Assembly: GCA_965234725.1 (NCBI GenBank) | Contig: CBDDUX010000003.1 | Span: 64,001-128,000 of the forward strand | Reading direction: 5' to 3' | DNA length: 64,000 nt | DNA from: Thermoplasmatota archaeon | GTDB lineage: Archaea > Thermoplasmatota > Penumbrarchaeia > Penumbrarchaeales > Penumbrarchaeaceae | In this document: one piece after another, positions 5,127-37,811 of the stretch | How positions within the stretch are numbered: position 1 is the first letter of the stretch | How the letters are laid out: every line of letters starts with the position of its first letter | Made by a program: the position numbers and the translations under genes | The notes under the pieces: model-generated | The model's database searches: none | What the model saw: only the letters and a program-made list of their open reading frames with translations | What the model was told of the DNA's origin: nothing

Positions 5127-6440
5127 ATGGCTTATGAGTTGAGATGGGGAAACCGGACATGGATCTATGCCCTTGCACTTGGCCTTGGGATCGGAATGGC
5201 AGTCCTGTTGTTGTTCAAGGATATGTTGGGTGAAATAGCATTCTGGAGTTATTATTCTCCCATGCTCGGTTATTATGTCCTCATATCCATTTGCCAGAGC
5301 CATTATTTCAGAAGGGAGCCGAAACCTGATATGGGAGGATTGTTCAGACAATTTGTTTCCATTTTTGGAGCCATAGTCATATTCTTTTTAAATCAGGCGG
5401 TCATGGAATCCATTTTTGTTGTTCCAGATGGTTTCATCATGGCGGGTCATTTCACATTCATTGTCTTTGGATTCTTCATTTACGGATTTGATGATTTCAT
5501 GTTCAAAGGAAAATTGCTAGGATGGATGAAGAATGATACGACCAAGGCATTTTTCTGGTATTTTTTCATATGGCTGATATGGGTAGTTCTTTTCTACAGT
5601 GATTTTGGCATATCAAAAGCCCATTCCAAGGACACCTGGGATGGATTGGCACAGAACAGGATGCTGGCAATAAGTCAATGGGCGATCATTATGTCCCTTC
5701 TCTATGCACTTCTGTTCAAGGATTGGCTTCCAGAACTTCAAAATAAATTAAGATTGAAGAATGATATCGTTTACGGTATCTTTCTCCTTCTTGCAGCTTT
5801 TATCATCGGGGGAGGTATCGCTTACCTGTTGTTTACAATGGCACCTTACATATCCCCGGAAGGGTATGACAGCCTGGTTGCGGATCCGGGTGTGAATGTC
5901 GACTCTGATATGTGGCATCATATCTTGTATATGGGAACTTTCCCATTGATACCTGCTATTCTGATAGGGGTCTATACCAAGAACTTCAACCACCTTCCTG
6001 GACCTGGCGAGAGGGTCATAAAGAGATTGATGATCTTCATACCCTCTGTCATAGTATTGTATTTCGCATATCACTGGTTGATAGCCCGGCCTGAAGTGTT
6101 CATCAATTACTTCTTTGATGATGCGGTTAAACCGGGATTAGGCCTTTTTGGAGAATCACATCATAACTGGTACCATCAACTGGACCTTTACTTCAACTTC
6201 ACTGTTTCCATTATTCCACTGACACATCATTGGTTCTGTGGAAGATATGGTTTCGTCAGGGAGGTTGACGATGAAGAACCTGAGAGTCCACCTCGGAGCA
6301 GGAGACCGGTAACAGTTGATGAGAGAAGGTCCAGGGAGAGGAGGGAAGTTATCTCTTCCGGAAGACCTGTAAGGGCTTCACCCAGGGAAAGGTTCCACTC
6401 TGAGAATGAACGGGACCTATCACGTCGCGAATGGCGATGA
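5127..6440 (+). CDS. Multi-pass membrane protein of unknown function with His-rich motifs and an Arg/Glu-rich C-terminal tail
   Basis: 437-aa ORF with roughly 9-10 hydrophobic segments; no family recognised. Confidence 0.7.
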   Translation: MAYELRWGNRTWIYALALGLGIGMAVLLLFKDMLGEIAFWSYYSPMLGYYVLISICQSHYFRREPKPDMGGLFRQFVSIFGAIVIFFLNQAVMESIFVVPDGFIMAGHFTFIVFGFFIYGFDDFMFKGKLLGWMKNDTTKAFFWYFFIWLIWVVLFYSDFGISKAHSKDTWDGLAQNRMLAISQWAIIMSLLYALLFKDWLPELQNKLRLKNDIVYGIFLLLAAFIIGGGIAYLLFTMAPYISPEGYDSLVADPGVNVDSDMWHHILYMGTFPLIPAILIGVYTKNFNHLPGPGERVIKRLMIFIPSVIVLYFAYHWLIARPEVFINYFFDDAVKPGLGLFGESHHNWYHQLDLYFNFTVSIIPLTHHWFCGRYGFVREVDDEEPESPPRSRRPVTVDERRSRERREVISSGRPVRASPRERFHSENERDLSRREWR

Positions 6441-6681: not shown

Positions 6682-7965
6682 ATGGCACGACGGGGTATAA
6701 GGGAATACGATGCAAAGAGAGTATTTTACAGAATGATGCCTAAGTATACCGGTGAGAAGGTGACCTTCGATATCATGCCCATATTGGTGGGTCCGGATAC
6801 TGATTTAGATATGCTTGTGGATGACAATCCCTGGCTTGAGAACATCAGATTGGTTGTGAAACCCGATCAGCTTTTCGGAAAGAGGGGGAAATCCGGTCTG
6901 GTCCTCTTGAACTGTTCTTTCGATGAAGCAAAGAACTTCATCAAGCAGAAAATGGGTAAGAATGCCACTGTTGGAAAGGTAAAGGGTAGACTTGAATATT
7001 TTCTAGTGGAACCATTCCTTCCTCATGACCTTGAGTATTATATTGCAATGAAGATGGATGCTGATGGGGACCATATCTATTTTTCAACTCAGGGAGGAGT
7101 GGATATTGAATCTGTCTGGGAGACAGTAAAGGAGGTCACCATCGGACCCCTGGATGATCCAGAACTTGAAACTAAGGATCTTCTCAAGGATAATTCAGCC
7201 CAGGAAAAGAAATTACTTACTCCTTTTCTCAAGGGTATGTACAAATTCTTTGTTAACCATGATCTTGTCTATCTCGAGATAAATCCATTCACCATCGTTG
7301 ATAACAAGATCAAAGTTCTCGACATGGTTGCCAAGGTGGATGACACTTCCATGTGGCAGGATATTGGTACATGGGATTTCAAAGAGTTCCCGGAACCCTT
7401 CGGCAAGGACCCCACCCCTGAAGAAGCATACATCAAATCACTGGATGAGAAGACAGGAGCTTCCCTTAAATTGACGATCCTCAATCCGGAAGGCCGAGTA
7501 TGGACAATGGTAGCAGGTGGGGGAGCATCTGTTGTATATGCGGATACCATAGTGGATATGGGTTTTGGAAAAGAACTTTCCAATTATGGTGAATATTCAG
7601 GTAATCCATCCACCGAGGAGACATACCTTTATGCTAAAACGGTCCTCTCAATGATGACAAAAGAGCCCCATAAGACCGGAAAAGGCAAGATACTGATAAT
7701 CGGAGGAGGTATCGCAAATTTTACTGATGTCGCTAAGACATTCACGGGTATCATTCAAGCACTCCGTGAATATGCTGACCAGATGAAGGAGGTTGGGGTC
7801 AGGATCTATGTTCGAAGAGGCGGTCCCAATTACAAAGCCGGTCTGGAGAATATGAGAGAGGTTGGCTCAGAGATTGGTATACCCATCAAAGTGTTCGGTC
7901 CGGAAGTTCATATGACCTCAATTATTCCAATGGCTTTAAAAGATGAAGGAAAGGGGGTGAACTGA
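6682..7965 (+). CDS. aclB: ATP-citrate lyase, ATP-grasp/citrate-binding subunit
   Basis: KPDQLFGKRGK, MVAGGGASVVYAD, NYGEYSGNP, GGGIANFTDVAKTF, RRGGPNY. Confidence 0.93.
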   Translation: MARRGIREYDAKRVFYRMMPKYTGEKVTFDIMPILVGPDTDLDMLVDDNPWLENIRLVVKPDQLFGKRGKSGLVLLNCSFDEAKNFIKQKMGKNATVGKVKGRLEYFLVEPFLPHDLEYYIAMKMDADGDHIYFSTQGGVDIESVWETVKEVTIGPLDDPELETKDLLKDNSAQEKKLLTPFLKGMYKFFVNHDLVYLEINPFTIVDNKIKVLDMVAKVDDTSMWQDIGTWDFKEFPEPFGKDPTPEEAYIKSLDEKTGASLKLTILNPEGRVWTMVAGGGASVVYADTIVDMGFGKELSNYGEYSGNPSTEETYLYAKTVLSMMTKEPHKTGKGKILIIGGGIANFTDVAKTFTGIIQALREYADQMKEVGVRIYVRRGGPNYKAGLENMREVGSEIGIPIKVFGPEVHMTSIIPMALKDEGKGVN

Positions 7966-9803
7966 TGGAACCATACCTTCTTTTTTCAAGGGATTCAAAA
8001 GCAATAGTATACAATATGCAGACAAAGGCTGTTCAGAGAATGCTGGATTTCGATTACCTTTCAGGTAGGGAGAAACCTTCCGTAGCTGCTATAGTCAATC
8101 CGGGTAACTCCGGTACACATAAAGCTCACTGGGGAACCGGTGAGATACTAATACCCATTATGCCATCGATAAAGGCGGCTACCGATGTCAACAAGGAAAT
8201 CGATGTTGTGGTAAACTTCGCTTCGTTCAGGTCGGCCTACCAGAGCACAAAGGAAGCTTTGATGAACGAGCAGATCAGGGTAGTAGCCGTCATTGCAGAA
8301 GGTATCCCGGAGAGGAAGGCAAGGGAGCTTGCTTATCTGTCGAAGAAGCTTGATAAGGTAATAATTGGCCCTGCGACGGTTGGAGCGATCGGAGCCGGAG
8401 TCTTCAAGGTTGGTAATACTGGTGGAACACTTGAGAACATCAAAGAGCAGAAACTCTACAGAAGAGGTTCTGTGGGACTGGTGACAAAATCCGGAGGCCT
8501 TCTCAACGAGATGTTCAACATTGTTTCGCATAATACAGATGGGATATTCGAGGGAGTTGCCATCGGTGGTGATAAATATCCGGGTTCAAGTCTTATCGAT
8601 CATCTGTTAAGGTACGAAGCAAATCCAAAGATCAAGATGATGGTGGCTCTAGGAGAACTGGGTGGTGATGAAGAATACAAGGTCGTCGAAGCTGTTAAGA
8701 AGGGACTTCTCACCAAACCCATAGTATTCTGGGTGATGGGAACATGCTCCAAGATGTTCCCTTCGGGAGTTCAATTCGGACATGCCGGAGCGAAGGCCGG
8801 AGCGGAGACCGAGACAGCTGACGCAAAGAACAAGGCTCTGAAGAAGGCCAGAGTGATCGTTCCAAGTTCTTTTGATACCTTGGGTGATGAGATCGCAAGG
8901 ACCTTCATCAAACTCAAGGATGAGGGTAAGATAACACCCATCGAAGAACCGAAGCATATTCCATTGATTCCGGTGGATTATGCGGATGCCTTGAAGAAAG
9001 GAATGATCAGAAAACCCACATCCTTCATCACTACCGTTGCGGATGATCGGGGGGAGGAGGTCAATTACGGAGGATATCCAATATCCGAGATCGTCCATGA
9101 CGGTGGAACGGTTGGTGATGTCATAGGTCTCCTATGGTTCGGGAGAAAATTCCCAAAATGGGCTTCCAAGTTCATGGAGATGGCAATTATGGTAGTTGCT
9201 GACCATGGACCCGCCGTATCAGGAGCCCACAACGCCATCATAGCCTCCAGGGCCGGAAAAGACCTTGTCAGCTGTCTTGCTTCAGGTCTGCTTACTATAG
9301 GTCCCAGGTTCGGTGGAGCAATTGACGGTTGTGCCAATTTCATGAAGAATGCCTACTACAGTGATCTGGAACCAAGGGCTTTCGTCAAGGAAATGAAAGA
9401 TAAGAACATAAAGATACCAGGGATAGGTCACCGTGTCAAATCCCTGGAGAATCCGGATGGAAGGGTCACACTCCTGATCGAGTATGCCAGGAAGAATTTC
9501 CCTAAAACAGATATCCTGGATTATGCGATCGATGTCCAGGCTGTGACAACCCAGAAGAAATCCAATCTGATCCTCAACGTGGATGGTACCATTGGAGTTC
9601 TGATGGTGGATATGCTCACCAATGTGGGATTCTTCTCAAAGGAAGAGGTAGACCGGATCGTAGAGCTTGGATACCTCAACGGGATCTTTGTCCTTGGCAG
9701 GTCTATAGGTCTGATAGGACATGCACTGGACCAGAAGAGGCTCAATGAGAGATTGTACAGACATCCATGGGAGGACATCCTCTACATGGTTGAGAGGAAG
9801 TGA
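7965..9803 (+). CDS. aclA: ATP-citrate lyase, CoA-binding/phospho-His/citryl-CoA lyase subunit
   Basis: NFASFRSA, IIGPATVG, QFGHAGA (phospho-His), ADHGPAVSGAHN, PGIGHRVKS, LNVDG; TGATG stop/start overlap with aclB. Confidence 0.93.
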   Translation: MEPYLLFSRDSKAIVYNMQTKAVQRMLDFDYLSGREKPSVAAIVNPGNSGTHKAHWGTGEILIPIMPSIKAATDVNKEIDVVVNFASFRSAYQSTKEALMNEQIRVVAVIAEGIPERKARELAYLSKKLDKVIIGPATVGAIGAGVFKVGNTGGTLENIKEQKLYRRGSVGLVTKSGGLLNEMFNIVSHNTDGIFEGVAIGGDKYPGSSLIDHLLRYEANPKIKMMVALGELGGDEEYKVVEAVKKGLLTKPIVFWVMGTCSKMFPSGVQFGHAGAKAGAETETADAKNKALKKARVIVPSSFDTLGDEIARTFIKLKDEGKITPIEEPKHIPLIPVDYADALKKGMIRKPTSFITTVADDRGEEVNYGGYPISEIVHDGGTVGDVIGLLWFGRKFPKWASKFMEMAIMVVADHGPAVSGAHNAIIASRAGKDLVSCLASGLLTIGPRFGGAIDGCANFMKNAYYSDLEPRAFVKEMKDKNIKIPGIGHRVKSLENPDGRVTLLIEYARKNFPKTDILDYAIDVQAVTTQKKSNLILNVDGTIGVLMVDMLTNVGFFSKEEVDRIVELGYLNGIFVLGRSIGLIGHALDQKRLNERLYRHPWEDILYMVERK

Positions 9804-9817
9804 GTATCTGAAAATGA

Positions 9818-9855
9818 GGGGGTAGGCCATAAGATCCTACCCCCAATTATTTTTT
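9818..9855 (+). terminator. Hairpin plus T-tract terminator of aclBA
   Basis: GGGGGTAGG-N9-CCTACCCCC, a perfect 9-bp stem followed by AATTATTTTTTT. Confidence 0.7.
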
Positions 9856-9960
9856 GGTATATTCTAGAATTTTTACACATCAAGCTTCAATTAATGTATT
9901 ATTGAATATTGGGATCAGTATGGATTTTTCGATTTTTGAAATTCCAGGAAATAACTCATT

Positions 9961-9994
9961 CAAAATAGAAAAGAGGGCCTCAATTGAGACCCCC
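9961..9994 (-). terminator. Hairpin plus T-tract terminator of the acn-cit-idh operon
   Basis: Minus strand GGGGGTCTC-AATT-GAGGCCCTC (two G-U pairs) followed by TTTTCTATTTTG. Confidence 0.65.
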
Positions 9995-10014
9995 TATAAT
10001 ACAGATCTCGAAGA

Positions 10015-13931
<3,917 letters not shown>

Positions 13932-13932
13932 A

Positions 13933-14832
13933 TCATTCCACCTCTTCTGGGGATGGTATATCAAGTTCTGCAGCCTCGGCCATTGCAAGTATCTTCTCTG
14001 CCTTCAGAACAATAGGCCGATCCACCATTTTCTTTCCAAGCGCAATGACCCCCCATCCTTTTTCTTTGGCGATCTGGATGGCCTTTTTCACTCTGACGGC
14101 ATAGATGATCTCTTCCTTCGTTGGGTTAAAGACATCATGGATGATCTCGATCTGAGATGGATGGATACATGCCTTGCCATCGAATCCCATCTTCCTGATC
14201 ATATCTGTTTCACTTCTGAGACCATCAGAATCGCTGAAATCGGAATATACCGTATCTATTGCCTGGATCCCTGCGGCTTTGGCTGCCAGGACGATCAACT
14301 GCCTTGAGGTATGTATGGCAATACCATCGGATGATCTGATGCCACCTAGGTCAGCTGTTAGGTCTTCTCCGCCAATGGTTATTCCTTCCAGCCTTTTAGA
14401 GCAGAATGCGATCTCCTTTGAGTTGAGAATGCCCTTTGCAGTCTCCATGGTTGCAAAAAGCTTGATCCTTCCGATCGGAAGTCCCTTCTTCTCTTCCATT
14501 TCAGTTACAAGTTCATCGACTTGGATAACATCCTCTGGAGTTTCTGTTTTTGGGATATATATACCATCCAATCTGGGACAGACTATCTGCCTGATATCCC
14601 ATTTTCCCCAGGGTGTGCTGATAGGATTTATCCTTACGGTCACTTCCACATTTGGACCGAAATCCACTACCTTCAAAGCTTCAGATACGAGCATCCTCGC
14701 ATCTACTTTAAAATCGGGATGAACGGCATCTTCAAGATCGAGTGAGATAACATCGGCACCGTAAAGACCGGCGGGAGGTATCATTTTGGGATTATTACCA
14801 GGGACATAGAGTCTGGACCTTCTTAGCTTCAT
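13933..14832 (-). CDS. citE: Citrate lyase beta subunit (citryl lyase)
   Basis: RRSRLYVPGNNP, DLEDAV, VRIN, GEDLTADLG, GFDGKACIHPSQI. Confidence 0.9.
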   Translation of the reverse strand: MKLRRSRLYVPGNNPKMIPPAGLYGADVISLDLEDAVHPDFKVDARMLVSEALKVVDFGPNVEVTVRINPISTPWGKWDIRQIVCPRLDGIYIPKTETPEDVIQVDELVTEMEEKKGLPIGRIKLFATMETAKGILNSKEIAFCSKRLEGITIGGEDLTADLGGIRSSDGIAIHTSRQLIVLAAKAAGIQAIDTVYSDFSDSDGLRSETDMIRKMGFDGKACIHPSQIEIIHDVFNPTKEEIIYAVRVKKAIQIAKEKGWGVIALGKKMVDRPIVLKAEKILAMAEAAELDIPSPEEVE

Positions 14833-15116
14833 TCGAATGCACCACCCTTGATAGCAGCGGCCTTTATGCGGGCCACTATGGTGAAATTCAATGGGCTGTT
14901 TCCTTTTGACCAGACAAGAGCGTCTTCTATGCCCATGCCTATAAGGGTTTCATGAAAGAGCTTGAATACCTCATCTCTGAACACATCTCTGGATTTCCCC
15001 TCTATCTCGATCTTTATACCTGTTCCAGGTTCCGCAGGGCTGAGTTTTACTATGCAATCCTCTCTCTCTTCGGTCCCTGCGATCCCTTCCCTTTTCAACT
15101 TATACGTCAATGTCAT
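14829..15116 (-). CDS. citD: Citrate lyase acyl-carrier (gamma) subunit homologue lacking the attachment Ser
   Basis: 95 aa; AGTEERED aligns to the CitD motif AGTLES(S/G)D; C-terminal TIVARIKAA; overlaps the citE start (ATGA). Confidence 0.8.
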   Translation of the reverse strand: MTLTYKLKREGIAGTEEREDCIVKLSPAEPGTGIKIEIEGKSRDVFRDEVFKLFHETLIGMGIEDALVWSKGNSPLNFTIVARIKAAAIKGGAFE

Positions 15117-15143
15117 TTTATCGCCTTTTCTTATTTATCATGA

Positions 15144-17066
15144 TCAGGATATTTGGTTCCTGGTATAGTTCAGAGTGCCTCCCTCTCTAATGACCTCAAT
15201 TTCCCTATCAGAAAGGTCATGGACAAGTGAGATCTTGAGGTTCTTGTTCTTAACTTCCAGGATAAGTTCTCCGGAAAGATCCGATAATCCTATTTGCAGA
15301 AGATCTCCCTGTTCAAGCAGATCGTAGTCCGATTGGTCCTTGAAGGTAAGGGGGAGAATTCCAAAGTTTACCAGGTTAGCCCTATGTATCCTGGCGAAGG
15401 ATTTCACGATAACAGCTTTAATTCCAAGATATTTTGGAGCAAGGGCAGCATGTTCCCTTGAGGAACCCTGACCGTAATTATCCCCTCCGATGATGAATCC
15501 GCCTCCCTTTTCAAGTGCCCTTTTTGGGAAGGTCTCATCGACCTGAGAGAAAACGTATTCAGATATTGCAGGAATGTTCGATCGAAGAGGTAGGATCTTC
15601 GCTCCTGCAGGCATGATATGATCGGTTGTAATATTGTCCTCTACTTTGATAAGAACCTCACCCTCCGCGGAAACCGGTAGTTCATGGAAATCAGGGAGAG
15701 GTTTGATGTTTGGCCCTCTGATTATTTCTACCTTACTAGCTTCATCAGCCGGGAGAGGATGTATGAAAAGGTTGTTATCCACGAGATAGGATTCAGGTTC
15801 CTGGACTTTGGTGAACTTTCCCAGTTTCCTTGGATCGGTTATTTTACCGAAAAGAGCTGTTGCAGCTGCAACCTCAGGGGAGACCAGATAGACATCTGCG
15901 TCCTTTGTCCCCGACCTTCCAGGGAAGTTCCTGTTGAAGGTCCTGACAGATACTGCACCGGATTTTGGTGCAAGTCCCATTCCGATACAGGGACCGCAGC
16001 CAGACTCAAGTATCCTGAATCCTGCCTCAACAAGGTCTCCGTATGCACCAGTTCTTACCATTTCCCTGATGATCGTCCTCGAACCGGGTGATATGGTCCC
16101 TGAGATGTCCTCATGGATCCTTCGTCCTTTTACAGCATTAGCTACGGTCATCAGGTCCCTGAAAGAAGAGTTAGTACAAGACCCGATACAAACTTGGTCG
16201 ACCTTCATTCCCTCTAACTCTGATATCTCTACCACTGATCCTGGGGAATGGGGTTTTGCTGCCATGGGGACAATTGAGGATAGATCGATCTCCATTATTT
16301 CATCATAGACAGCATCCGGATCCGCCTTGATCTCAACCCATTGTTCTCCCCTTCCCATAGCCTCCATGAACTTCTTTGTAACATTGTCTGAAGGGAATAT
16401 CGAGGTTGTAGCACCGGTCTCCGTGCCCATGTTGGTCACTGTGGCTCTGTCAGGTACGGAGAGGGTAGAAACCCCCGGACCGAAGTACTCAAGGATATAT
16501 CCTCTTCCACCCTTGACATCCAATCTTTTCAGTACTTCCAGAATAATGTCCTTACCAGATACCCAATCCGGAAGCTCTCCTGTTAGTTTTATCCCCAAGA
16601 TCTTGGGGTACTTCAATTGGAATGCTCCACCAGCCATTGCAACCGCAATATCCAGACCTCCAGCCCCGATAGATATCTGACCGATACCTCCGGCGGTGGT
16701 TGTATGGGAATCCGATCCGATCAATGTCTTTCCTGGTTTTGAGAACCTTTCAAGGAAGACCTGATGGCATATACCATTCCCAGCCTTTGAGAGGACAATG
16801 CCATATCTCTTTGCAATGGATTGAAGATATCTGTGGTCATCGGCATTCTTGAAATCGGATTGAAGCATGTTGTGATCGATGAAGGAAACGGAAAGTTCCG
16901 TCTTGACCCTGTCGAGGTTCATGGCCTCGAATTGCAGGTACGCCATTGTCCCAGTAGCATCCTGGGTCAAGGTATGGTCCATTCGTATCGCGATCTCTTC
17001 TCCAACTTTTTCAGTTCCTTCCACTAAATGCTCTTTAAGGATCTTCTGAGCCAAGGTAAGTCCCAT
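15144..17066 (-). CDS. acn: Aconitate hydratase (short ~640-aa type)
   Basis: TQDATGT, DHN, GICHQ, DSHT, IGSCTNSS, CGPCIGMG, NRNF, NITTDHI, NYGQGSSREHAA. Confidence 0.9.
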   Translation of the reverse strand: MGLTLAQKILKEHLVEGTEKVGEEIAIRMDHTLTQDATGTMAYLQFEAMNLDRVKTELSVSFIDHNMLQSDFKNADDHRYLQSIAKRYGIVLSKAGNGICHQVFLERFSKPGKTLIGSDSHTTTAGGIGQISIGAGGLDIAVAMAGGAFQLKYPKILGIKLTGELPDWVSGKDIILEVLKRLDVKGGRGYILEYFGPGVSTLSVPDRATVTNMGTETGATTSIFPSDNVTKKFMEAMGRGEQWVEIKADPDAVYDEIMEIDLSSIVPMAAKPHSPGSVVEISELEGMKVDQVCIGSCTNSSFRDLMTVANAVKGRRIHEDISGTISPGSRTIIREMVRTGAYGDLVEAGFRILESGCGPCIGMGLAPKSGAVSVRTFNRNFPGRSGTKDADVYLVSPEVAAATALFGKITDPRKLGKFTKVQEPESYLVDNNLFIHPLPADEASKVEIIRGPNIKPLPDFHELPVSAEGEVLIKVEDNITTDHIMPAGAKILPLRSNIPAISEYVFSQVDETFPKRALEKGGGFIIGGDNYGQGSSREHAALAPKYLGIKAVIVKSFARIHRANLVNFGILPLTFKDQSDYDLLEQGDLLQIGLSDLSGELILEVKNKNLKISLVHDLSDREIEVIREGGTLNYTRNQIS

Positions 17067-17235
17067 TTGAAGCCTCCACTGATTGAAACCCCTCTGAGGG
17101 TTGAAGGTTAATTCGAAAAGCCCTATTTATATATTACTGAAATTTGATATTCTGTTTTCCTTTGCGAAATAATGGAAAGAAAAATTTGTAAAGAAGCTCA
17201 ACAATTCATCATATTTAAATAATAGATTACCAATC

Positions 17236-18369
17236 ATGGAAAAAGTGTCAATGATGAAGGGATTATCAACCACAGAGAAGCTTGTCTTCATGGGTCTGAT
17301 CACCTATCCGGACAATAAGGATACAGAGATAGCAGAGATGCTTTCACTTCCAAATTCCACCTTCGCATCGGTAAAATCAAGGATAATGGAGGAAGGTTTT
17401 CTTTACGAGAGATATATTCCCATATTTCCGAACCTTGGATTCGAACTTCTTGCTGCAGTTTACAGTGATTTTAACCCATCTGTATCAGTTGATGAAAGGA
17501 TAGCAAATACCCGAAGGACCGTTGAGATATATCCGGAGATGATACTCTCAATGGGAGAATCCCATAGAGGTTTCTCACTTTCAGTAGCAGAGAATATAAC
17601 CCGGATAATGAGGATATCCCACCAGAGGATGAAGATCCTTGCCGATCTGAACCTTCTGGAGATCGAGTTACCAAGAGAAGTGATATTCCCATTCGAGATG
17701 TCCACAATTCACCGTTTCTTCAACCTGGCCCCCCTCCTGTATGCAAAGCTTTCTGGCGAAAGAGACCTGGTAATGAAGGATATCTCGGGTCTTGAGAGGG
17801 ACATATACAAGAAGGACCCCATCCTTCAGGTAAAGTACCCCAATAGCAAGAAGAGACCGGTGGATGTGAACTTATCTCGGAAGCAGTTGGAGATATTGTA
17901 CTACCTGATAAAACACCCGGAACTATCGGCCTCTCGGCTTTCCACCATCATTCCTTATTCCAGGCATACGATCTCTCGTGCAAGGGAGATGTTAATTGAG
18001 GAAGGATATTTGGCCTGCACTCGTATACCTGATCTTTCCAAATTGGGTTATTCGATGCTTTCACTATTCCATGTGAAGATGGATCCAAAAAACCCCATTG
18101 ATCCTCAGGTATGTAAGAGGAAGGAACTCCTCCAGGATGATACCGTATTCTTTGTATCGAGACCCACAGAGCTGATGATGCTGGCTGTTTACGAGAATTA
18201 CCCACATTATAATAGAGGGATGTCCATATTCAGCCAATATTTGAAAGTCGAGGGATACATGTCAACGATCCCCACGATAAGGAATCATTCTCTTTCCGAG
18301 GCAGTCTGGATCAAGAAGTTCATTCAACATCCGATAATAAAGGATGCTTTCCACCTTGATATTGATTGA
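17236..18369 (+). CDS. Internally duplicated Lrp/AsnC-like transcriptional regulator
   Basis: Two copies of a wHTH followed by P-x-(F/L)-xx-LG(F/Y) and an effector-like domain; divergent from acn. Confidence 0.7.
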   Translation: MEKVSMMKGLSTTEKLVFMGLITYPDNKDTEIAEMLSLPNSTFASVKSRIMEEGFLYERYIPIFPNLGFELLAAVYSDFNPSVSVDERIANTRRTVEIYPEMILSMGESHRGFSLSVAENITRIMRISHQRMKILADLNLLEIELPREVIFPFEMSTIHRFFNLAPLLYAKLSGERDLVMKDISGLERDIYKKDPILQVKYPNSKKRPVDVNLSRKQLEILYYLIKHPELSASRLSTIIPYSRHTISRAREMLIEEGYLACTRIPDLSKLGYSMLSLFHVKMDPKNPIDPQVCKRKELLQDDTVFFVSRPTELMMLAVYENYPHYNRGMSIFSQYLKVEGYMSTIPTIRNHSLSEAVWIKKFIQHPIIKDAFHLDID

Positions 18370-19133: not shown

Positions 19134-21143
19134 TTACTCACCAGATACCTCTAGCCATCTGTATGCTGATCTTGTATAATCCTGGAAATAACCCCTGTCG
19201 AAGGAGTTACCAGTGCAGAGATAGGATACTATCCTATACAATCCTGGTCCACCCTCTTCCTCTTCCAGCATGAAAGATACAGTGAATGTCTTTTTTTCAT
19301 TCGATGATATATTGAAAGAATGATCCAGTGAGGATATATGGTCACCTCTCAGGTTGTAGATATTGATCCCGAGAAATGCCTCCACATCGTCCTCATCGGA
19401 CAATACTGAATATTGATGCTTCAATGTATCCTTGAATCCGTCACCATCCTCGTCGGTTGTGGTGCAGGAAAGAAGGGCAGTATCGAAATGGAGGACTTTT
19501 GGGGCTCCTGCACCTTCGAGATGATCGAAGTACGTTGAAAGCAGAGCCGTCCATGATGTGTCTTTTGCAAACTTCAGATCTGAATAATCATTGTTCTGGT
19601 CCATAACATCCCTGAAATCCGGCGCGTAAATGGATAATCCCCTCAAACCCTCGATGGACCAACCTCCAACCTGAGTTGAATTGAAGTTCAATACAGCATT
19701 GCTGATATCGTCAAGAACGGTCTGTGACAGTTCTCTGATCGAAGATGTTTCCGTCAATTTCTGTATATTCTCAACGAAATCGAATAGATCGACAGCATCC
19801 GAAGTATGTCCCTCCTGTATGGGTTGAGCATACTTTCTTGCTATGTTCATATTATATAGTTCAGCGGACCCTGATTCTGCAATGGTATTTGAAAGTGTAT
19901 TCAAGGACCTTGCAATGGCATCCATTCCCTTCAGATCATAAACCCCCATGCTCATAGAGGTTTTTGAGCCCAGCTTTCCCATTTGGTCCAGATAGTCAAC
20001 CATGAATAGTTCCGAAAGAGAAGCGGGAGAGATGTATGGATCCTGTTTGAGCTTTCCAAGTGTGAGATAATCCCAACCGTATGCAGGCTCGGTGATCTCA
20101 GATCCTACCATAAGGTCGCAATATGGTGAGATCTCATAAGCTACCTCGAATGCAGACATAAGGCATGCATCGAATCCTAGAATATCCAGATCCCTTCCTA
20201 AATGGGAGGTTATCCTATCCAGAGCCCATCCCAGCTGGTCAATTTTCATGACCTCCTCCTCCTCAAGACTCTGTTCCCAACAGATCCCATCGGTTCCCGA
20301 ACCATGGTTCCATAGGATAAGGGCATTATGATCGGCAGGGTAATTATCCATGGACCAAGTAGCAAAATCCACAAGTTCCTCGGGGTCGGCCGAATCGATC
20401 TCGCCGATATCACTTAACTCCTCTGATGTGATCATTTCACTATCATCATCAAGGTCGATCCTGAACCTCTTTGCAGTTGTCCAATTGCCGTCGGTCCTAT
20501 CATCTTTGGGTGACAGGCTCTCCCATCTATCCAGTTGTACTATAATATTCACAAGGGAAGAAGATCCGATCGACTCCAGCTCATTGATATCTTTCAAAGC
20601 CCAGGATTCAAGATCACAATCGCTCATATAGATCATGAATGTCCATTTGGGAGGGGGTCGATAGACCTTCTCAAATGAGATACTGTCAGAGATATAATCA
20701 GCCTTTTCAGCCGTGATATTTACATTGAAGGTGCCCTCATCATTAAAAGAAGGCAATTCCACAAGTACCTCGAAATTACCATTGGGATCTGAAACAGACC
20801 TGAATTTTTTATCGGAGATACCAGGTATACTCACAGCGACTGATGCGCCATCGATGTCTGCACCCTTTTGGGTCTTGACCTCTCCGGAAAAGGTCATTCT
20901 TGAACCTGAGATCAGCAAGTCAGGACCATCTTTGATGGTAAGAACGAGTTCGGTGTTCTTCTCCTTTCCATCATCTCTTGACGATCCTTGATCATTTATA
21001 TCATAGACAATGTAATAAAAACCAGGGATCGTGAGAAGAAGGAACATCAGAAGTATGACCACTATGACATATAATGCTCTGGATGGAGATCTGGCCTTGA
21101 CCTCAATGGCTCTAATGCTCCTTCCGGTATATCCATTGGTCAT
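19134..21143 (-). CDS. Membrane-anchored clostripain-family (C11) peptidase
   Basis: N-terminal TM helix, Ig-like segment, WTFMIYM..DLE, LILWNHGSG (His), LGFDACLMSAFEVAYE (Cys); start adjusted from 21278. Confidence 0.85.
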   Translation of the reverse strand: MTNGYTGRSIRAIEVKARSPSRALYVIVVILLMFLLLTIPGFYYIVYDINDQGSSRDDGKEKNTELVLTIKDGPDLLISGSRMTFSGEVKTQKGADIDGASVAVSIPGISDKKFRSVSDPNGNFEVLVELPSFNDEGTFNVNITAEKADYISDSISFEKVYRPPPKWTFMIYMSDCDLESWALKDINELESIGSSSLVNIIVQLDRWESLSPKDDRTDGNWTTAKRFRIDLDDDSEMITSEELSDIGEIDSADPEELVDFATWSMDNYPADHNALILWNHGSGTDGICWEQSLEEEEVMKIDQLGWALDRITSHLGRDLDILGFDACLMSAFEVAYEISPYCDLMVGSEITEPAYGWDYLTLGKLKQDPYISPASLSELFMVDYLDQMGKLGSKTSMSMGVYDLKGMDAIARSLNTLSNTIAESGSAELYNMNIARKYAQPIQEGHTSDAVDLFDFVENIQKLTETSSIRELSQTVLDDISNAVLNFNSTQVGGWSIEGLRGLSIYAPDFRDVMDQNNDYSDLKFAKDTSWTALLSTYFDHLEGAGAPKVLHFDTALLSCTTTDEDGDGFKDTLKHQYSVLSDEDDVEAFLGINIYNLRGDHISSLDHSFNISSNEKKTFTVSFMLEEEEGGPGLYRIVSYLCTGNSFDRGYFQDYTRSAYRWLEVSGE

Positions 21144-21246
21144 ATTGGGCCTACCCAGGAGATCAAAGATCATCCCGAAGAAAAAATCAGTTGTTGGACA
21201 CTTAAAGGTTTCCGTCAAACGTTCAAAATGTGAGTCAACCAACATG

Positions 21247-22716
21247 TCATATCCTGTGGCGTCTGTTGATCTTTGCATCCTTTGATGTGGTCCAAAAAAT
21301 CGAAATGAAGAAATAGGATATTACTGCAAGCAGTAAAGAGGATACTATGATGGGAATGAATAATAATTCATTCTCGTTCCAACCTAGTCCATTGAAGATA
21401 TCCAAAGCTATGATCATCGATCCTGTAAGGAATAGCAGGGTCTTTCCGAGTTTCATACTCCAGAAGAACGGGATGAAGGCAAGTATTATGATATAGTATC
21501 CCGAATGGATCTTGGGAAATATCATTAAGAATAATAGTATGAAGAGCATAGAAGTGTTCAGAGTCCCAAATTCCCTTCTGAACGATAAAAGTAGGAGAAG
21601 GGATCCCAGAAGGACAATAACAGCCGTATTGATGAAAGGATAATAGCCGATCTCCCCGAGATACCTCCAGAGGGAGATCCCCTGAAGCTGACCTCCTGAG
21701 TCTCCGGTGAAGTAGAGTTTGGCAAATGTAGCTACACCGTCAGGTGAAAGATAAGTTACAGGAGCAAGGAAGGCTGCAAGGACGACCAAGGCAAAGATGG
21801 ATTTGAAGATCCTCTTGATCAATTTTTCTCTTTCGGATAACAAACCAGGCATCATCAGGAGGTGAAAGACCTTCGTTGCCATCCCGATCCCAATGAGCAT
21901 TGAAGCCCATGCTCCTCTTTTTCGTACGATGGCATGCACCGTCAGGACGAATAGGAATGCCACAATGATATCGTCCTGGACGGCACCGACCGTTGAATAG
22001 ATGGTCAAGGGATTGAGAACAAAAAGGGAACCATATACCACTGATCTCCATTTGCCATCAGGCCAGAATGTTCTCATCACCATGAAGGCTGACATCAGGG
22101 CAAAGAGGGCAAAGTATGTCCTGAATACGATGAATGATCCCCCCAGAAGTGCAGGGAGGATCCAGAATATATTGATCAATGGTGGATTTAGGGTAGGGAC
22201 ATCTTTGTAGATCATCCTGCCTTCGAGCAGGGTCTCTCCTCTGTCTTTGTAGAATGGAGCATCTGTCTCCTTCTTATATACCTCGATCTTCCAGGTTGTG
22301 TTCCTACCTTCCTCTCTTATCTTCTTCACATCACCATCAAGAAGCTTCCAGGTCCGGTTGTCATCATAAGGAGAAGAGGTATAGAGCTTGGTATGGTTCA
22401 CCAGTTCGAGTCTGATGGGAATATAACCACGGGGAGTAAGGACTCGAACATCGCTCCCATTTAAACCGAATTCAATGAAAAGCATGGTGTCGTTGGTTAT
22501 TTCACTATATTCCCAGACATCATCACTTGTGGCAAATAGATCATCCGGTCCTATGGTGACTGTGTAGTGGTCTTCCTGGAAATTCAGACCGGTATATACC
22601 AGTAAAGGTACATAGAATACAAGCCAGGCAGTAAAAATGGTGATAAAGGGATGGAGGGCAAGAGACTCTATCAACTTCCTCTTCAAAGGATGTTTGTTCC
22701 TTGCCCCTCCAGCCAT
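21247..22716 (-). CDS. GT-C-type (GT87-like) membrane glycosyltransferase
   Basis: Multi-TM protein with NPP, LNPLTI...QDDII, GMATK and HSGY motifs. Confidence 0.6.
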   Translation of the reverse strand: MAGGARNKHPLKRKLIESLALHPFITIFTAWLVFYVPLLVYTGLNFQEDHYTVTIGPDDLFATSDDVWEYSEITNDTMLFIEFGLNGSDVRVLTPRGYIPIRLELVNHTKLYTSSPYDDNRTWKLLDGDVKKIREEGRNTTWKIEVYKKETDAPFYKDRGETLLEGRMIYKDVPTLNPPLINIFWILPALLGGSFIVFRTYFALFALMSAFMVMRTFWPDGKWRSVVYGSLFVLNPLTIYSTVGAVQDDIIVAFLFVLTVHAIVRKRGAWASMLIGIGMATKVFHLLMMPGLLSEREKLIKRIFKSIFALVVLAAFLAPVTYLSPDGVATFAKLYFTGDSGGQLQGISLWRYLGEIGYYPFINTAVIVLLGSLLLLLSFRREFGTLNTSMLFILLFLMIFPKIHSGYYIIILAFIPFFWSMKLGKTLLFLTGSMIIALDIFNGLGWNENELLFIPIIVSSLLLAVISYFFISIFWTTSKDAKINRRHRI

Positions 22717-22766: not shown

Positions 22767-23924
22767 TCAACTATCGGATGAAAGTAGGAATTCCTTGCCC
22801 ATCCTTTTAATACCATATTTTTCCTCGATATCCTTGAATTTCTCTAAGAGACGTGTCTTGTCTCCCATAGTGAGATATTTGTTTGCCAGAGGGAAATAAT
22901 ATTCCTCTTCCCTTTTAAGGTGCTCCCTCAAGATCTTGATATATCTTTTTAGAGCCCTTTTTAGCGCTATATGTTTCATGGAGGATCCGATTGACTTCCC
23001 AATAATGGCTGTTACTCCGCTTCCACAATCCGGACATTCTCCTTTGAAAGAGTAGTTACCAGTTTCCATCTGGAAGATCGTAGGTTCTTTCATGATGACT
23101 TTTTCCTTGCATTTCAGACAGTAGGCTGGAAAATCATCTATATGTTCCATTATATTGTAATCCTTGCTGGCTTCAGGGTCTTTATCAAGGCTCTCCTTGT
23201 AGCTTGTGAACAATTCCTTTATCTCTTCAACCACTGTTTCGAGTTTGACATGTTCTTCTTCGATCAACTTCGATGATGATTCCTTCAGGGTCTGATTCAC
23301 CTCTGACTGGGATTTTATCAATCTATCCATAAAGGCAATCGAGTACTCGTTCTCCTTATCCTGATGTATGCTGGTTTCGAGTACAAAAGATCTTCCTGAA
23401 AGCCAGTCCACCAATTTGTTCTTCGCTTCCTGATCGACCCTTTCGATCAGCTCCTCGAGCTTCTTTGCCTGAAACCTTAGGATACCGTGTTCGTCAAGCA
23501 GGTTTTCAACAGGGTCTGTTTCGCTCTTTTCAACCTCTTCAGGAAGTTCTAGGAAATAATCTATTGCTGTCTCCAACCTCTCCATGATAGTGCTCCTATC
23601 GTATGGTTTGGTGAGTAGATCATTGGCTCCCATCTCCGTGGCGTTCATTATATCATATCTACCACCCCTATCACCAGTGATGATGATATAGCAATCCCTG
23701 TTATTGTGGTGGTTGAGCTCCCTGATCTTGGTGGCCAGTTCAAGTCCATCGATGCTGGGGAGGTTCCAATCTAAAAATAAGATGGATATCTCCTCATCTT
23801 TTTTATATGCCGTTAGGACCTCTCCACCTGAATCAAGGATGATGGGATCGTGTTCCTGTGTCCTCAAAGTGTTGGCAATCATCGTCCTGTAAGCCTCATT
23901 CTCATCAGCTATGATAACCTTCAT
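22767..23924 (-). CDS. Receiver domain plus hemerythrin-like (HHE) domain with inserted Cys4 zinc ribbon, paralogue 1
   Basis: REC motifs LFLDWNLP, IITG and KP; HHE ligands DEH, HQDKE, EEH and HLKRE; insert YCLKC...ECPDC. Confidence 0.8.
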   Translation of the reverse strand: MKVIIADENEAYRTMIANTLRTQEHDPIILDSGGEVLTAYKKDEEISILFLDWNLPSIDGLELATKIRELNHHNNRDCYIIITGDRGGRYDIMNATEMGANDLLTKPYDRSTIMERLETAIDYFLELPEEVEKSETDPVENLLDEHGILRFQAKKLEELIERVDQEAKNKLVDWLSGRSFVLETSIHQDKENEYSIAFMDRLIKSQSEVNQTLKESSSKLIEEEHVKLETVVEEIKELFTSYKESLDKDPEASKDYNIMEHIDDFPAYCLKCKEKVIMKEPTIFQMETGNYSFKGECPDCGSGVTAIIGKSIGSSMKHIALKRALKRYIKILREHLKREEEYYFPLANKYLTMGDKTRLLEKFKDIEEKYGIKRMGKEFLLSSDS

Positions 23925-24114
23925 AATCAGTCCCCTTTTATTTTTCCACAAAAGATTTTTGTGTATTTAAGGGATTGCCTTGAAATAAATGAGGAATAAT
24001 TGGCAATGCAAGAAAAACTGAATAAGGCAATTTCATCTAAACCGGATGACTTGTATTCAAGCCAATATTGGACCTCAATGTGAAATAAGATCGGATCAAA
24101 TATTCATCGATCGA

Positions 24115-25272
24115 TCAATTTGAAGGGGAAAGAAGAAAATCCTTCCCCATCCTGTGAATACCAAATTCATCCTCTATCTTTTTGAATTCTTCAAGGAGCC
24201 TTGTCTTATCCCCGCTTGTAAGGTACCTATTGGCTAGGGGGAAGTAAAGGTCCTCCTCTCTTTTCAGGTGATCCTTAAGGATATTGAGGTATTTTTTTAG
24301 CGATCTCTTCAGCGCTGCATGTTTCATTATGGCTCCTATGGATTTTCCAATAATGGAGGTGACCCCGCCATTACAATCAGGACAGTTCCCTTTGAAAGCA
24401 TAATTCCCTGTCTCCAACTGGAAAATGGATGGTTCCACCATTACTACTTTATTCTGGCATTTAAGGCAAAATGCAGGATAATCATTCACATGCTTCAAAA
24501 TATTGTAATTTTCTGGAAGTTCCTGCGGGGAATCAAGACTCTCTTTGTAGCTGTTGAACCTGTCCTTCACCTCAGAAACGATCGTATCCAGCTTGTTATG
24601 TTCACTCTCCACCCATTGGGAGGATGATTCGGATAGGGCTTGATTCTCTTCCCCGTGGGCATTCATCAACCTTTCCATGAAAGCTACAGAGAACTCGTGT
24701 TCCTTGTCCTGGTGTACTTTAGTCTCAAGGACAAATATCCTTCCCCCCATCCAGTTTATGAGCTTACTAGGTGCCTCTTCATCCACACTGTCAAGCAGGT
24801 CTTCCAACTTGTCTGCTTGGAATCTTAAGATCCCATGTTCGTCCATTAGATGCTCTACAGGATCCTTCTCGGTCTTTTCGACCTCATCAGGCAGCTCAAG
24901 AAAATGATCGATAGCGGTCTTCATTCTGTCAGCTATGATATTGCTGTCATATGGTTTGGTAATGAGGTCATTCGCTCCCATCTCCATTGCATTCATTATA
25001 TCATACCTTCCACCCTTTTCCCCTGTTATGATTATATAACAATCCCTGTTCATGTGGAAATTGAGGTATCTTATCTTTGTTGCAAGTTCCAATCCATCCG
25101 TTCCTGGGAGGTTCCAGTCCAAAAATAGGATATTGATATCATCATCCTTTTCATATGCATCCAGGACATTTTGGGCTGAATCCAATACAATTGGTTCATG
25201 GTCCTGTCTCCTTAGTGTATTTATTAACATGGTCCTGTAAACCTCATTTCCATCGGCTACTATAACTTTCAT
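24115..25272 (-). CDS. Receiver domain plus hemerythrin-like domain with inserted Cys4 zinc ribbon, paralogue 2
   Basis: Colinear with paralogue 1 over its full length, with the same ligands and FCLKC...NCPDC. Confidence 0.8.
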   Translation of the reverse strand: MKVIVADGNEVYRTMLINTLRRQDHEPIVLDSAQNVLDAYEKDDDINILFLDWNLPGTDGLELATKIRYLNFHMNRDCYIIITGEKGGRYDIMNAMEMGANDLITKPYDSNIIADRMKTAIDHFLELPDEVEKTEKDPVEHLMDEHGILRFQADKLEDLLDSVDEEAPSKLINWMGGRIFVLETKVHQDKEHEFSVAFMERLMNAHGEENQALSESSSQWVESEHNKLDTIVSEVKDRFNSYKESLDSPQELPENYNILKHVNDYPAFCLKCQNKVVMVEPSIFQLETGNYAFKGNCPDCNGGVTSIIGKSIGAIMKHAALKRSLKKYLNILKDHLKREEDLYFPLANRYLTSGDKTRLLEEFKKIEDEFGIHRMGKDFLLSPSN

Positions 25273-29744: not shown

Positions 29745-30368
29745 CTATTCGGGGTAGAGGTAGAGAGGAACATCAGACGACCTCATCGAACACATCTTCC
29801 TTTCCAATCTTCCTATCTCATTTCCGTCCTTGAAGACTGTAATAGTTCCACTGCTGGAGAGGACGACCGCGACAGTTCTTGTTCTTTTGGTGATGAACCT
29901 TGCCGCTCTCCATCTTGTTCCTGAGCCTTTTCCCTTTCTCCTTTCGAAATCAAACTCGATTTCACCACATTCAGGTCCTCTGACGTTGATCATCCTTCCC
30001 GCATAGTGGACGAAACCTCGCGAATCGAAGACCATTGCTCCATCCATCTGGGTAAAGGATTCAATTGTGGGGATCTGATCATGGTCTCCAATATTGATAT
30101 CTTTCCACCCTTTAAATGGATTGATTATCATCTGGGTGGAATTCCTTCTGATACCCTCGATATCCCCCACAAGATAAAGGGCTCCGACGGACCTTCCTTC
30201 ATACCCTTTTAGAGAAAGGCCCATAAGGATCTCCATCGCATTCCTCACAGTGGTACCTTTTGTCCCCTTCAGACATAGACCCTCCATTATTGCAGATAGA
30301 TCACCCTGAAGGCAGAGAAGATGTACATCATTGCCATCTTCCGAGTTCTCTCCTTTGAATGAAGACAT
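29745..30368 (-). CDS. Stand-alone diadenylate cyclase (DisA_N/DacZ-like) domain protein
   Basis: GALYLVGD, INPFKG, DGA motif, GTRWRAA (RHR variant), VVLSSSGTITVFKDG. Confidence 0.8.
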   Translation of the reverse strand: MSSFKGENSEDGNDVHLLCLQGDLSAIMEGLCLKGTKGTTVRNAMEILMGLSLKGYEGRSVGALYLVGDIEGIRRNSTQMIINPFKGWKDINIGDHDQIPTIESFTQMDGAMVFDSRGFVHYAGRMINVRGPECGEIEFDFERRKGKGSGTRWRAARFITKRTRTVAVVLSSSGTITVFKDGNEIGRLERKMCSMRSSDVPLYLYPE

Positions 30369-37695: not shown

Positions 37696-37811
37696 TATCA
37701 CTTTATGATAACTTTGGATTATCAGCGAAATCTTTAATATAAAACCAGGGAATGGTTCAATTCAGAGAAGCTATTGTTCCGAATACCGGACGGTCAGGCA
37801 AGGGATATATT

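Follow-up and report, generated by a model that had tools for sequence, protein, structure and literature searches.

A candidate citrate/2-oxoglutarate module with a serine-less citrate lyase in Thermoplasmatota archaea

The stretch of DNA analysed here (hereafter the window; 64,000 nucleotides, positions 64001-128000 of contig C3 in a 3.54 Mb Thermoplasmatota genome of 114 contigs and 97.65% completeness) carries two convergent gene units: aclB-aclA (6682-9803, + strand) for a two-subunit ATP-citrate lyase (ACL), and acn-citD-citE-citF-idh (17066-10015, - strand) for an aconitase, the three citrate lyase subunits and an isocitrate dehydrogenase (IDH), with a regulator gene divergent from acn. 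We propose, at a probability of roughly one half, that the locus is a short citrate/2-oxoglutarate module of anaerobic peptide-degrading Thermoplasmatota, in which a citrate lyase lacking the prosthetic-group serine would work on free CoA, and which belongs to no carbon-fixing cycle. What is new here is the unfused serine-less CitD, the conserved acn-citDEF-IDH operon beside ACL, and their occurrence in a lineage in which citrate synthase was not found.

In textbooks, the mark of citrate lyase is a covalent dephospho-CoA arm, together with three helpers that build and charge this arm. As a passage of PMC10798043 has it, CitG and CitX build the arm of the classical enzyme and attach it to CitD, and CitC acetylates it. 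In the alignment, the CitD sequences of E. coli, K. pneumoniae and E. faecium (drawn from annotated citCDEF(X)G clusters) read AGTLES(G/S)D, whereas the window CitD, a free-standing 95-aa protein of the citrate-lyase gamma/ACP (acyl carrier protein) fold (14829-15116, - strand; PF06857, 41 bits, cut-off 25.1), reads AGTEERED, with Arg18 in the place of the serine. All 18 distinct archaeal loci have a basic residue in this column (R in 13, K in 5), against S in 20/20 bacterial CitD, and among 54 representatives of the clade there are 46 with R, seven with K and one fragment. A word-index search with CitD reached the close archaeal clade only (54 candidates), and a full HMMER scan was needed for the bacterial relatives; its 44 representatives (one 1357-aa protein was omitted and two were fragments) gave 41 full-length sequences, 21 of them with S, 12 with R, 6 with K and one each with E and N, and some of the R-type clusters carry Deltaproteobacteria labels of metagenome-assembled genomes (MAGs).

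The family searches for the helpers, for which the E. coli controls were positive, gave no match to CitG (PF01874), CitX (PF03802) or CitC (PF08218) in the window's own genome. Within a comparison set of 41 related genomes, CitX was found in 0/41 and CitG in 0/24 genomes of the window's own family and 0/2 of the sister family; CitC, which beyond the own genome was sought only in the 18 archaeal loci, by means of a profile made for this analysis, was found in none of them. In bacterial genomes, CitC, CitX or CitG lies within 9 kb in 15 of the 17 loci. In a set of 80 metagenome loci retrieved by a CitF profile, many of them with short flanks, at least one helper is encoded in the locus in 32/57 rows with S-type CitD, 0/8 with R/K-type and 0/3 with P-type (one row, cut at the serine column, is helper-less); when only rows with 4 kb or more of flank on each side are counted, these become 18/25, 0/1 and 0/2. 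These counts by CitD type are given without a statistical test, as related sequences are not independent. With another residue in the place of the serine and no CitC, CitX or CitG found, the archaeal enzyme is in all probability not a classical holo-ACP citrate lyase, and free acetyl-CoA is the most likely alternative to the arm. Thus the view taken in an earlier note on this DNA, that CitDEF is the classical fermentative bacterial lyase, has to be given up in favour of a predicted serine-less and helper-less form that is conserved in this archaeal clade. A literature search (supplements aside) returned nothing relevant on serine-less or CoA-dependent CitDEF, or on CitDEF in these archaea.

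CitD appears to be still in use. Compared with seven relatives, citD has pN (proportion of nonsynonymous differences) values of 0.10-0.18 against saturated pS (synonymous) values of 0.68-0.89, which is comparable to citE and citF and indicates purifying selection on CitD as strong as on CitE and CitF. A structural model of the CitF-CitD complex scored 0.61 (best of 3 controls, 0.00) and supports, short of proof, binding of the two proteins; at least 85% of contacts are common to its runs, the partner has a pLDDT (predicted local distance difference test) of at least 88, and the mark applied is reached by 116/157 solved complexes and 2/215 mismatches, counts that are rough since our own alignments were used. 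In the model, CitD residues 18-19, 42-49 and 74-77 lie against CitF 402, 430-433, 496-504 and 529-535; the pair 18-19 would touch CitF 431, within an invariant R430-G431-R432, and the 529-535 group is part of a C-terminal CitF tail that is specific to the archaeal clade. Malonate decarboxylase (MdcACDE, Pseudomonas) offers a parallel: its transferase MdcA is homologous to CitF and its carrier MdcC to CitD, and according to PMC5534430 MdcC bridges the subunits of the complex, its Ser25 sitting on the tip of a loop directed into the site of the transferase; unlike the archaeal CitD, however, MdcC retains this serine and the arm, and its substrate is malonate. The CitD profile gave no relevant match among solved structures (two chance-level ones, E 0.014 and 0.26), so that residue 18 is not placeable on an experimental model.

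The arrangement is shared by relatives. CitF is present in 29/41 of the related genomes, including 22/23 other members of the family and 2/2 genomes of the sister family, and its closest relatives (77-89% identical) come from MAGs labelled Thermoplasmatota or Thermoplasmata archaeon. The regulator/acn-citD-citE-citF core was found in 16 distinct Thermoplasmatota loci (the window, nine genomes and six further MAG contigs), so the fear raised in the earlier note that the cluster might lack conservation is unfounded for the acn-citDEF-IDH core (the position of ACL is taken up below). Fifteen of the 16 loci have the regulator divergent from acn, and the remaining one, L061, is on a contig that begins at citD and so does not reach the regulator position. 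In every locus that reaches far enough, the slot 3' of citF holds an isocitrate dehydrogenase, of which there are three types: a monomeric IDH in 13 loci (including L071, a 7.6-kb contig with citF-idh only), a dimeric-type NADP-IDH in G008 (L032:10843-12069) and G009 (L030:10712-11971; NF006156, 649 and 653 bits, respectively, cut-off 335), and an enzyme of the IDH/isopropylmalate-dehydrogenase family in the sister-family genome G024 (L033:8002-9222). To judge from these gene families, the slot has undergone non-orthologous displacement in place inside the family; such a replacement suggests that IDH activity is selected beside the lyase and, hence, that citrate is the substrate of the lyase. 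At the serine-less bacterial loci from metagenomes the acn/IDH/ACL neighbourhood was not seen (save an aconitase in L157), and up to now only the archaeal clade is seen to have it.

Gene identities were assigned by Pfam and NCBIfam family scans with curated cut-offs. The strong family matches for all named genes bear out the gene calls, the operon layout and the archaeal origin proposed from the letters alone, the last also marked in the window by an archaea-specific ThrRS editing domain, Pus10, an Rpb4-like subunit, DUF655 and ZPR1. The 548-aa citrate CoA-transferase (citrate lyase alpha) encoded by citF (12285-13931, - strand; PF04223, 542.6 bits) scores 596.2 bits with TIGR01584, over the equivalog cut-off of 501.45, and is about 41% identical to E. 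coli CitF and 76-89% identical among members of the family. Homologues and sequence place the citF start at ATG 13931, one base past the citE stop (13935-13933); a start at TTG 13988 was rejected on the same grounds. The citE product (13933-14832, - strand) is a predicted citryl-thioester lyase (citrate lyase beta; PF03328, 206 bits) that also matches the RipC and malyl-CoA lyase models weakly. Upstream, acn (15144-17066, - strand) encodes a 640-aa aconitate hydratase of the PRK07229/TIGR01342 type (NF005558, 965.6 bits, cut-off 612; TIGR01342, 909.4 bits, cut-off 719), a family assignment made from the sequence match alone, and downstream idh (10015-12258, - strand) encodes the monomeric NADP-isocitrate dehydrogenase (PF03971, 1292 bits; TIGR00178, 1291.5 bits, cut-off 950). 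The 4-nt overlap of citD and citE and the short gaps (acn-citD, 27 nt; citF-idh, 26 nt) point to a tight operon. The regulator (17236-18369, + strand), with weak Pfam and NCBIfam matches, has two predicted winged-helix domains (a TrmB-like N-terminus and a MarR/Lrs14-like domain at about 212-260).

In comparison with classical CitDEF (EC 4.1.3.6; citCDEFXG of E. coli, Klebsiella pneumoniae, Enterococcus), the archaeal lyase has the same subunit families, the order citD-citE-citF and translational coupling. It differs in the Arg/Lys at the prosthetic-group serine, in a genome without detected citC, citX and citG, in the extra C-terminal tail of CitF (placed by the model against CitD), and in its position between aconitase and IDH, with neither a citrate carrier nor an oxaloacetate decarboxylase pump. 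A second CitF paralogue, 43% identical, is encoded elsewhere in the genome (G000:C62:31044-32636, L024:9545-11137; TIGR01584, 488 bits, just under the cut-off), alone among housekeeping genes (ksgA, truD and a tetratricopeptide-repeat gene), and similar lone paralogues occur in G001, G006, G008 and G024. Standing alone as it does, this paralogue suggests that CitF-family enzymes of the lineage can evidently act on free CoA esters without a carrier. Cleavage of citryl-CoA or related free CoA esters with no carrier protein is also reported for the citryl-CoA lyase of Hydrogenobacter, which acts together with a citryl-CoA synthetase, and for lone CitE-like lyases of CoA esters, Rv2498c of M. tuberculosis among them; unlike these, where activation costs ATP (through the synthetase) or CitF and CitD are absent, the proposed archaeal CoA-transferase would make citryl-CoA free of ATP.

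ATP-citrate lyase is encoded by aclB (6682-7965, + strand), the beta subunit with ATP-grasp and citrate-binding regions (PF16114, 289.5 bits; PF24948, 224.8 bits), and aclA (7965-9803, + strand), the alpha subunit with a CoA-ligase domain (PF00549) and a citryl-CoA-lyase/citrate-synthase-like C-terminal domain (PF00285), which together make up the full domain set of the two-subunit enzyme. Orthologues of aclB that are 55-82% identical adjoin aclA in G003, G008, G009 and G024. AclA has a GHAGA motif at residues 272-276 (His273), presumably the phosphohistidine motif, and is the sole match to PF00285 and to PF00549 genome-wide, and thereby the only protein of the genome with a citrate-synthase-fold domain. 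The domain set, the two-gene layout and the GHAGA histidine are shared with the AclAB of Chlorobium and other reductive tricarboxylic acid (TCA) cycle organisms; unlike there, no complete cycle surrounds the archaeal enzyme and the genome is without citrate synthase, and AclAB here may consequently work in either direction.

The rest of the genome describes the setting of the locus. Citrate synthase was found in none of the 41 genomes searched, PF00285 giving only a partial, AclA-type match in the own genome and in each of 29/41 relatives and no match in the other 12. A fumarate reductase/succinate dehydrogenase flavoprotein (PF00890 gave only N-terminal Rossmann matches of 30-40 residues), a succinyl-CoA synthetase (Ligase_CoA, PF00549, matches AclA alone) and a class I fumarase were not found in the genome, and an Ldh_1-type malate dehydrogenase was found in 0/13 genomes; one class II fumarase/aspartase-family gene and one Ldh_2-family dehydrogenase gene are present. 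There are three glutamate dehydrogenase (GDH) paralogues, six 2-oxoacid oxidoreductases (a long pyruvate:ferredoxin oxidoreductase (PFOR), a four-subunit enzyme of the pyruvate/2-oxoisovalerate type (POR/VOR), one of two subunits and three indolepyruvate oxidoreductases (IOR)) and three ADP-forming acyl-CoA synthetases of about 700 aa each, a set that fits a peptide fermenter. The two-subunit enzyme, of the 2-oxoacid:ferredoxin oxidoreductase type (OAFO), scores 493.5 bits with TIGR03710 (cut-off 482.75), a match from which the substrate is not deducible. As to the enzymes for which the earlier note had wished the genome surveyed, Por-type and two-subunit 2-oxoacid oxidoreductases and ADP-forming acyl-CoA synthetases are thus there, and fumarate reductase (Frd) and citrate synthase were not found; the predicted gene set is that of a peptide fermenter and not of a reductive-TCA autotroph.

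For oxaloacetate and its neighbours, a malic-enzyme-family protein is encoded away from the cluster (G000:C69, L057:622-3230), its gene directly preceded by one of the LarA family (nickel-pincer, malate-racemase-like). The Na+-pumping oxaloacetate decarboxylase beta subunit was found in 0/9 genomes and archaeal phosphoenolpyruvate carboxylase in 0/8 genomes of the own and sister families; GTP-dependent phosphoenolpyruvate carboxykinase occurs only in G024. Glutamate mutase was found in 0/13 genomes, and the methylaspartate/citramalate route was rejected as a candidate on this count. The cluster encodes no citrate transporter, and the single CitMHS-superfamily permease, 28 kb off, is too unspecific to count; the linkage of a carrier and an oxaloacetate decarboxylase to the lyase genes, as in the fermentative citrate pathway of Klebsiella and lactic acid bacteria, was not found.

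We reason that the module could work as follows. CitF would move CoA from free acetyl-CoA onto citrate, giving acetate and citryl-CoA, and CitE would split citryl-CoA into oxaloacetate and acetyl-CoA; acetyl-CoA would thus be catalytic, and the net conversion of citrate to acetate and oxaloacetate ATP-free. CitD would serve as a docking or bridging subunit, and its basic loop tip, positioned at the entrance to the CitF active site, might bind the phosphate groups of free CoA. Glutamate from peptides would be deaminated to 2-oxoglutarate, IDH would carboxylate this reductively with the NADPH re-used from GDH, and aconitase would lead to citrate; after the lyase step, oxaloacetate would pass through pyruvate to acetyl-CoA and on to acetate and ATP. 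ACL may be a reversible, ATP-linked alternative that supplies acetyl-CoA for biosynthesis and, run backwards, may be the organism's only way to citrate.

In terms of gene content the operon alone makes up a complete path from 2-oxoglutarate to oxaloacetate and acetate, NADPH-neutral with GDH in front. By our own arithmetic, with oxaloacetate decarboxylation, PFOR and ADP-forming acyl-CoA synthetase added, the balance is glutamate + 2 H2O -> 2 acetate + CO2 + NH3 + H2 with one ATP, and the oxidative path to succinate has two electron pairs for the same ATP. The suggestion of the earlier note that 2-oxoglutarate from amino acids is turned into citrate, which is then cleaved at the cost of ATP or free of it, is therefore the favoured and a plausible one, in view of the operon content, the three GDH, the C11 and C25 peptidases that flank the locus (see below) and the missing citrate synthase. 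More tentatively, and as a possibility that may well prove wrong, the family could ferment glutamate by an undescribed citrate route that is NADPH-neutral, yields one ferredoxin-level electron pair per glutamate and uses an arm-less lyase, with ACL as valve and sole citrate synthase.

Several observations weigh against this proposal or loosen it. Lyase activity and the use of free CoA are predicted from sequence, and the most likely use of free acetyl-CoA is read from absences and a single substitution, at a column that we take to be that of the attachment serine (Ser14 in E. coli and K. pneumoniae numbering, after Schneider, Dimroth and Bott 2000 and UniProt); an undetected modification system may also exist. 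The best model for CitE, TIGR01588, gives 319.1 bits, under its equivalog cut-off of 443.4, and CitD scores 52.5 bits with TIGR01608, also under the equivalog cut-off (63.5). Because the like complex MdcA-MdcC is already solved, the CitF-CitD model may have passed through this likeness alone. ACL was found inside the fetched stretch in only 7 of the 16 core loci, and AclA lies on a separate contig in at least G001, G006, G007 and G010, so the convergence with aclBA, unlike the acn-citDEF-IDH core, is variable, and the link between the two units is looser than was assumed there. Flux through the module may also run the other way. In the window's genome a PycB-PycA-type carboxylase is encoded away from the citrate locus (contig C40). 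In G024 (C15; L180:8224-12383, L033:224-6629), pycB-pycA-birA, for a two-subunit biotin carboxylase of the pyruvate-carboxylase type and a biotin ligase, are found 404 nt 3' of aclA and share the strand of acn-citDEF-idh-aclBA, an arrangement that would suit the synthesis of citrate from pyruvate no less well, provided that the carboxylase does not act on 2-oxoglutarate.

The last observation leads to an anabolic or amphibolic reading, in which the locus would be the oxidative branch of an incomplete TCA cycle leading to 2-oxoglutarate and glutamate: pyruvate carboxylase would provide oxaloacetate, ACL run backwards would be an ATP-conserving citrate synthase, and the lyase would degrade surplus or imported citrate. 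That AclA occurs in 29/41 genomes, including families without CitF, and citrate synthase in 0/41 speaks for it, as do the unavailability of a reductive route to 2-oxoglutarate (since Frd and SucCD were not found) and the presence of PycB-PycA, adjacent to and co-directional with aclBA in G024. In Desulfobacter postgatei, ACL is reported to act toward citrate with a gain of ATP (Moller et al. 1987, cited in PMC9768450). Synthesis of citrate by the lyase itself is thermodynamically unlikely, given an equilibrium constant near 0.3-1 M. Yet the acn/idh operon and its dedicated regulator go with the lyase and not with ACL, a protein degrader with three GDH hardly needs to synthesise glutamate, imported citrate would have to rely on the one distant permease, as the cluster is without a transporter, and with the models used the PycAB-like carboxylase is indistinguishable from a 2-oxoglutarate carboxylase; we therefore hold this reading to be unlikely, if deserving of serious thought. 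The earlier note had also offered a loop in which ACL works toward citrate, making ATP, and the lyase regenerates oxaloacetate, with the net reaction acetyl-CoA + ADP + Pi -> acetate + CoA + ATP, or acetate activation when reversed. Its stoichiometry is sound, and both enzymes are present, adjacent in the 7/16 loci and represented in one RNA library, and the ATP-yielding ACL reported for Desulfobacter postgatei would be a precedent; but the loop is redundant, because the three ADP-forming acyl-CoA synthetases of the genome achieve the same in one step and it conserves no extra energy, it has no need of the acn and idh that share the operon of the lyase, and ACL stands on another contig in at least four members of the family, all of which makes it improbable.

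It is very improbable that the lyase is classical after all, with the arm attached elsewhere on CitD or by enzymes from families other than those of CitX and CitG. Such a reading can point to the retained CitD fold and AGT..D motif with its invariant T15, and to the fact that a family missing from draft genomes is never proven absent; but bacteria, which have Ser14 as the site, keep the Thr of AGT just as invariably, a basic residue in the serine column recurs in 18 of the 41 full-length HMMER representatives and is never joined by CitC, CitX or CitG in the metagenome loci, and these three were found 0 times in a 97.65%-complete genome, with CitX and CitG also at 0 in 25 relatives. Citramalate lyase is built like citrate lyase, and a CitDEF-like enzyme for another acid (citramalate, malate or itaconate-derived CoA esters), or a citD that is a decaying relic, might be read from the CitE score under the equivalog cut-off and the weak RipC and malyl-CoA lyase matches. 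The other acids raised as an objection in the earlier note are nonetheless unlikely substrates, since an IDH (of three types) always follows citF, aconitase lies upstream, CitF is over the citF equivalog cut-off and no glutamate mutase was found in 13 genomes; with citD under purifying selection besides, we regard both versions as far-fetched. Hardly any credence can be given to a reductive TCA cycle for autotrophy, the Chlorobium-type pairing of ACL and monomeric IDH to which the earlier note had likened the cluster. ACL, monomeric IDH, PFOR, a two-subunit 2-oxoacid:ferredoxin oxidoreductase, a PycAB-type carboxylase, a class II fumarase/aspartase-family gene and an Ldh_2-family dehydrogenase gene are indeed present; against this, citrate synthase, the fumarate reductase flavoprotein, succinyl-CoA synthetase and class I fumarase were not found, the IDH type is interchangeable within the family and the genes present are those of a peptide fermenter, which leaves the analogy unsupported.

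A sediment metatranscriptome (one run of one study) yielded pieces of contigs, 150-260 nt long and 97-99% identical, that fall on the 3' end of aclA, on the 5' end of idh and on acn, and pieces of the same identity that span the citF/citE and citE/citD junctions; further pieces on idh are 88-95% identical. As these RNA contigs give neither strand nor level and may include DNA carry-over, a point that tells against leaning on them for the proposed module, they hint only weakly at transcription of both units in a single sample, and the co-expression of the two operons asked about in the earlier note is supported to that extent. Window stretches left uncovered in the RNA run X6 are no evidence of silence, and the small shares of the window matched by the DNA runs X2-X5 at 88-95% identity (relatives) are not informative on habitat or strain.

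Both convergent units terminate in a hairpin, as the earlier note had it; each hairpin is rich in G+C and has a T-run after it. The one 3' of aclA (9818-9857, + strand) has a 9-bp perfect stem, GGGGGTAGG/CCTACCCCC (9818-9844), and the one 3' of idh (9962-9995, - strand) a 10-bp stem (9995-9972) with 6 G-C pairs. In the whole region 12 terminator-like sites were observed against a shuffle expectation of 11.7, so that only the placement of the hairpins is informative. A scan for sigma-70 and terminator consensus sequences likewise matched shuffle expectation (archaeal promoters lie outside the consensus used), and a search for operators gave no inverted repeat of at least 8 nt in the regulator-acn or paaK-side intergenic regions.

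The citrate locus has a C25 gingipain-like (1-2436, - strand) and a C11 clostripain-like peptidase gene (19134-21278, - strand) on either side, the latter keeping its position beside the regulator and MgtC in G001, G003, G009 and L066. Between a paaK-like ligase gene and aclB lies a gene (5127-6440, + strand) for a 437-aa multi-pass membrane protein with an Arg/Glu/Ser-rich C-terminal tail, which is without Pfam or NCBIfam match and occupies the same place in G009 and L066. Elsewhere in the window, a 438-aa protein (37752-39068, + strand) has a strong match to the bacterial DnaA ATPase domain (PF00308, 195 bits) in this archaeal genome, two tandem paralogues (22767-23951 and 24115-25272, - strand) each combine a response-regulator receiver, DUF5679 and a partial hemerythrin domain, and a 207-aa protein (29745-30368, - strand) with a diadenylate cyclase (DAC) domain suggests c-di-AMP signalling in the archaeon.

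If the serine-less and helper-less form occurs, as our counts suggest, in these archaea and in many uncultured bacteria, it would mean a widespread ATP-free cleavage of citrate, or citryl-CoA chemistry, whose mechanism annotation has misfiled. ACL genes routinely serve as markers of the autotrophic reductive TCA cycle in sediment metagenomes, as parts of PMC11287216 and PMC6461988 exemplify, and a passage of the former lists AclA in a Thermoprofundales-affiliated operational taxonomic unit as evidence of the reverse cycle. As ACL in the family examined here comes with neither the remainder of the cycle nor a citrate synthase, calls made on this marker would mislabel abundant peptide-degrading benthic archaea. 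Should the reading of the module as a path from glutamate to acetate be true, a redox-sparing fermentation route would be added to the carbon flow of anoxic sediments.

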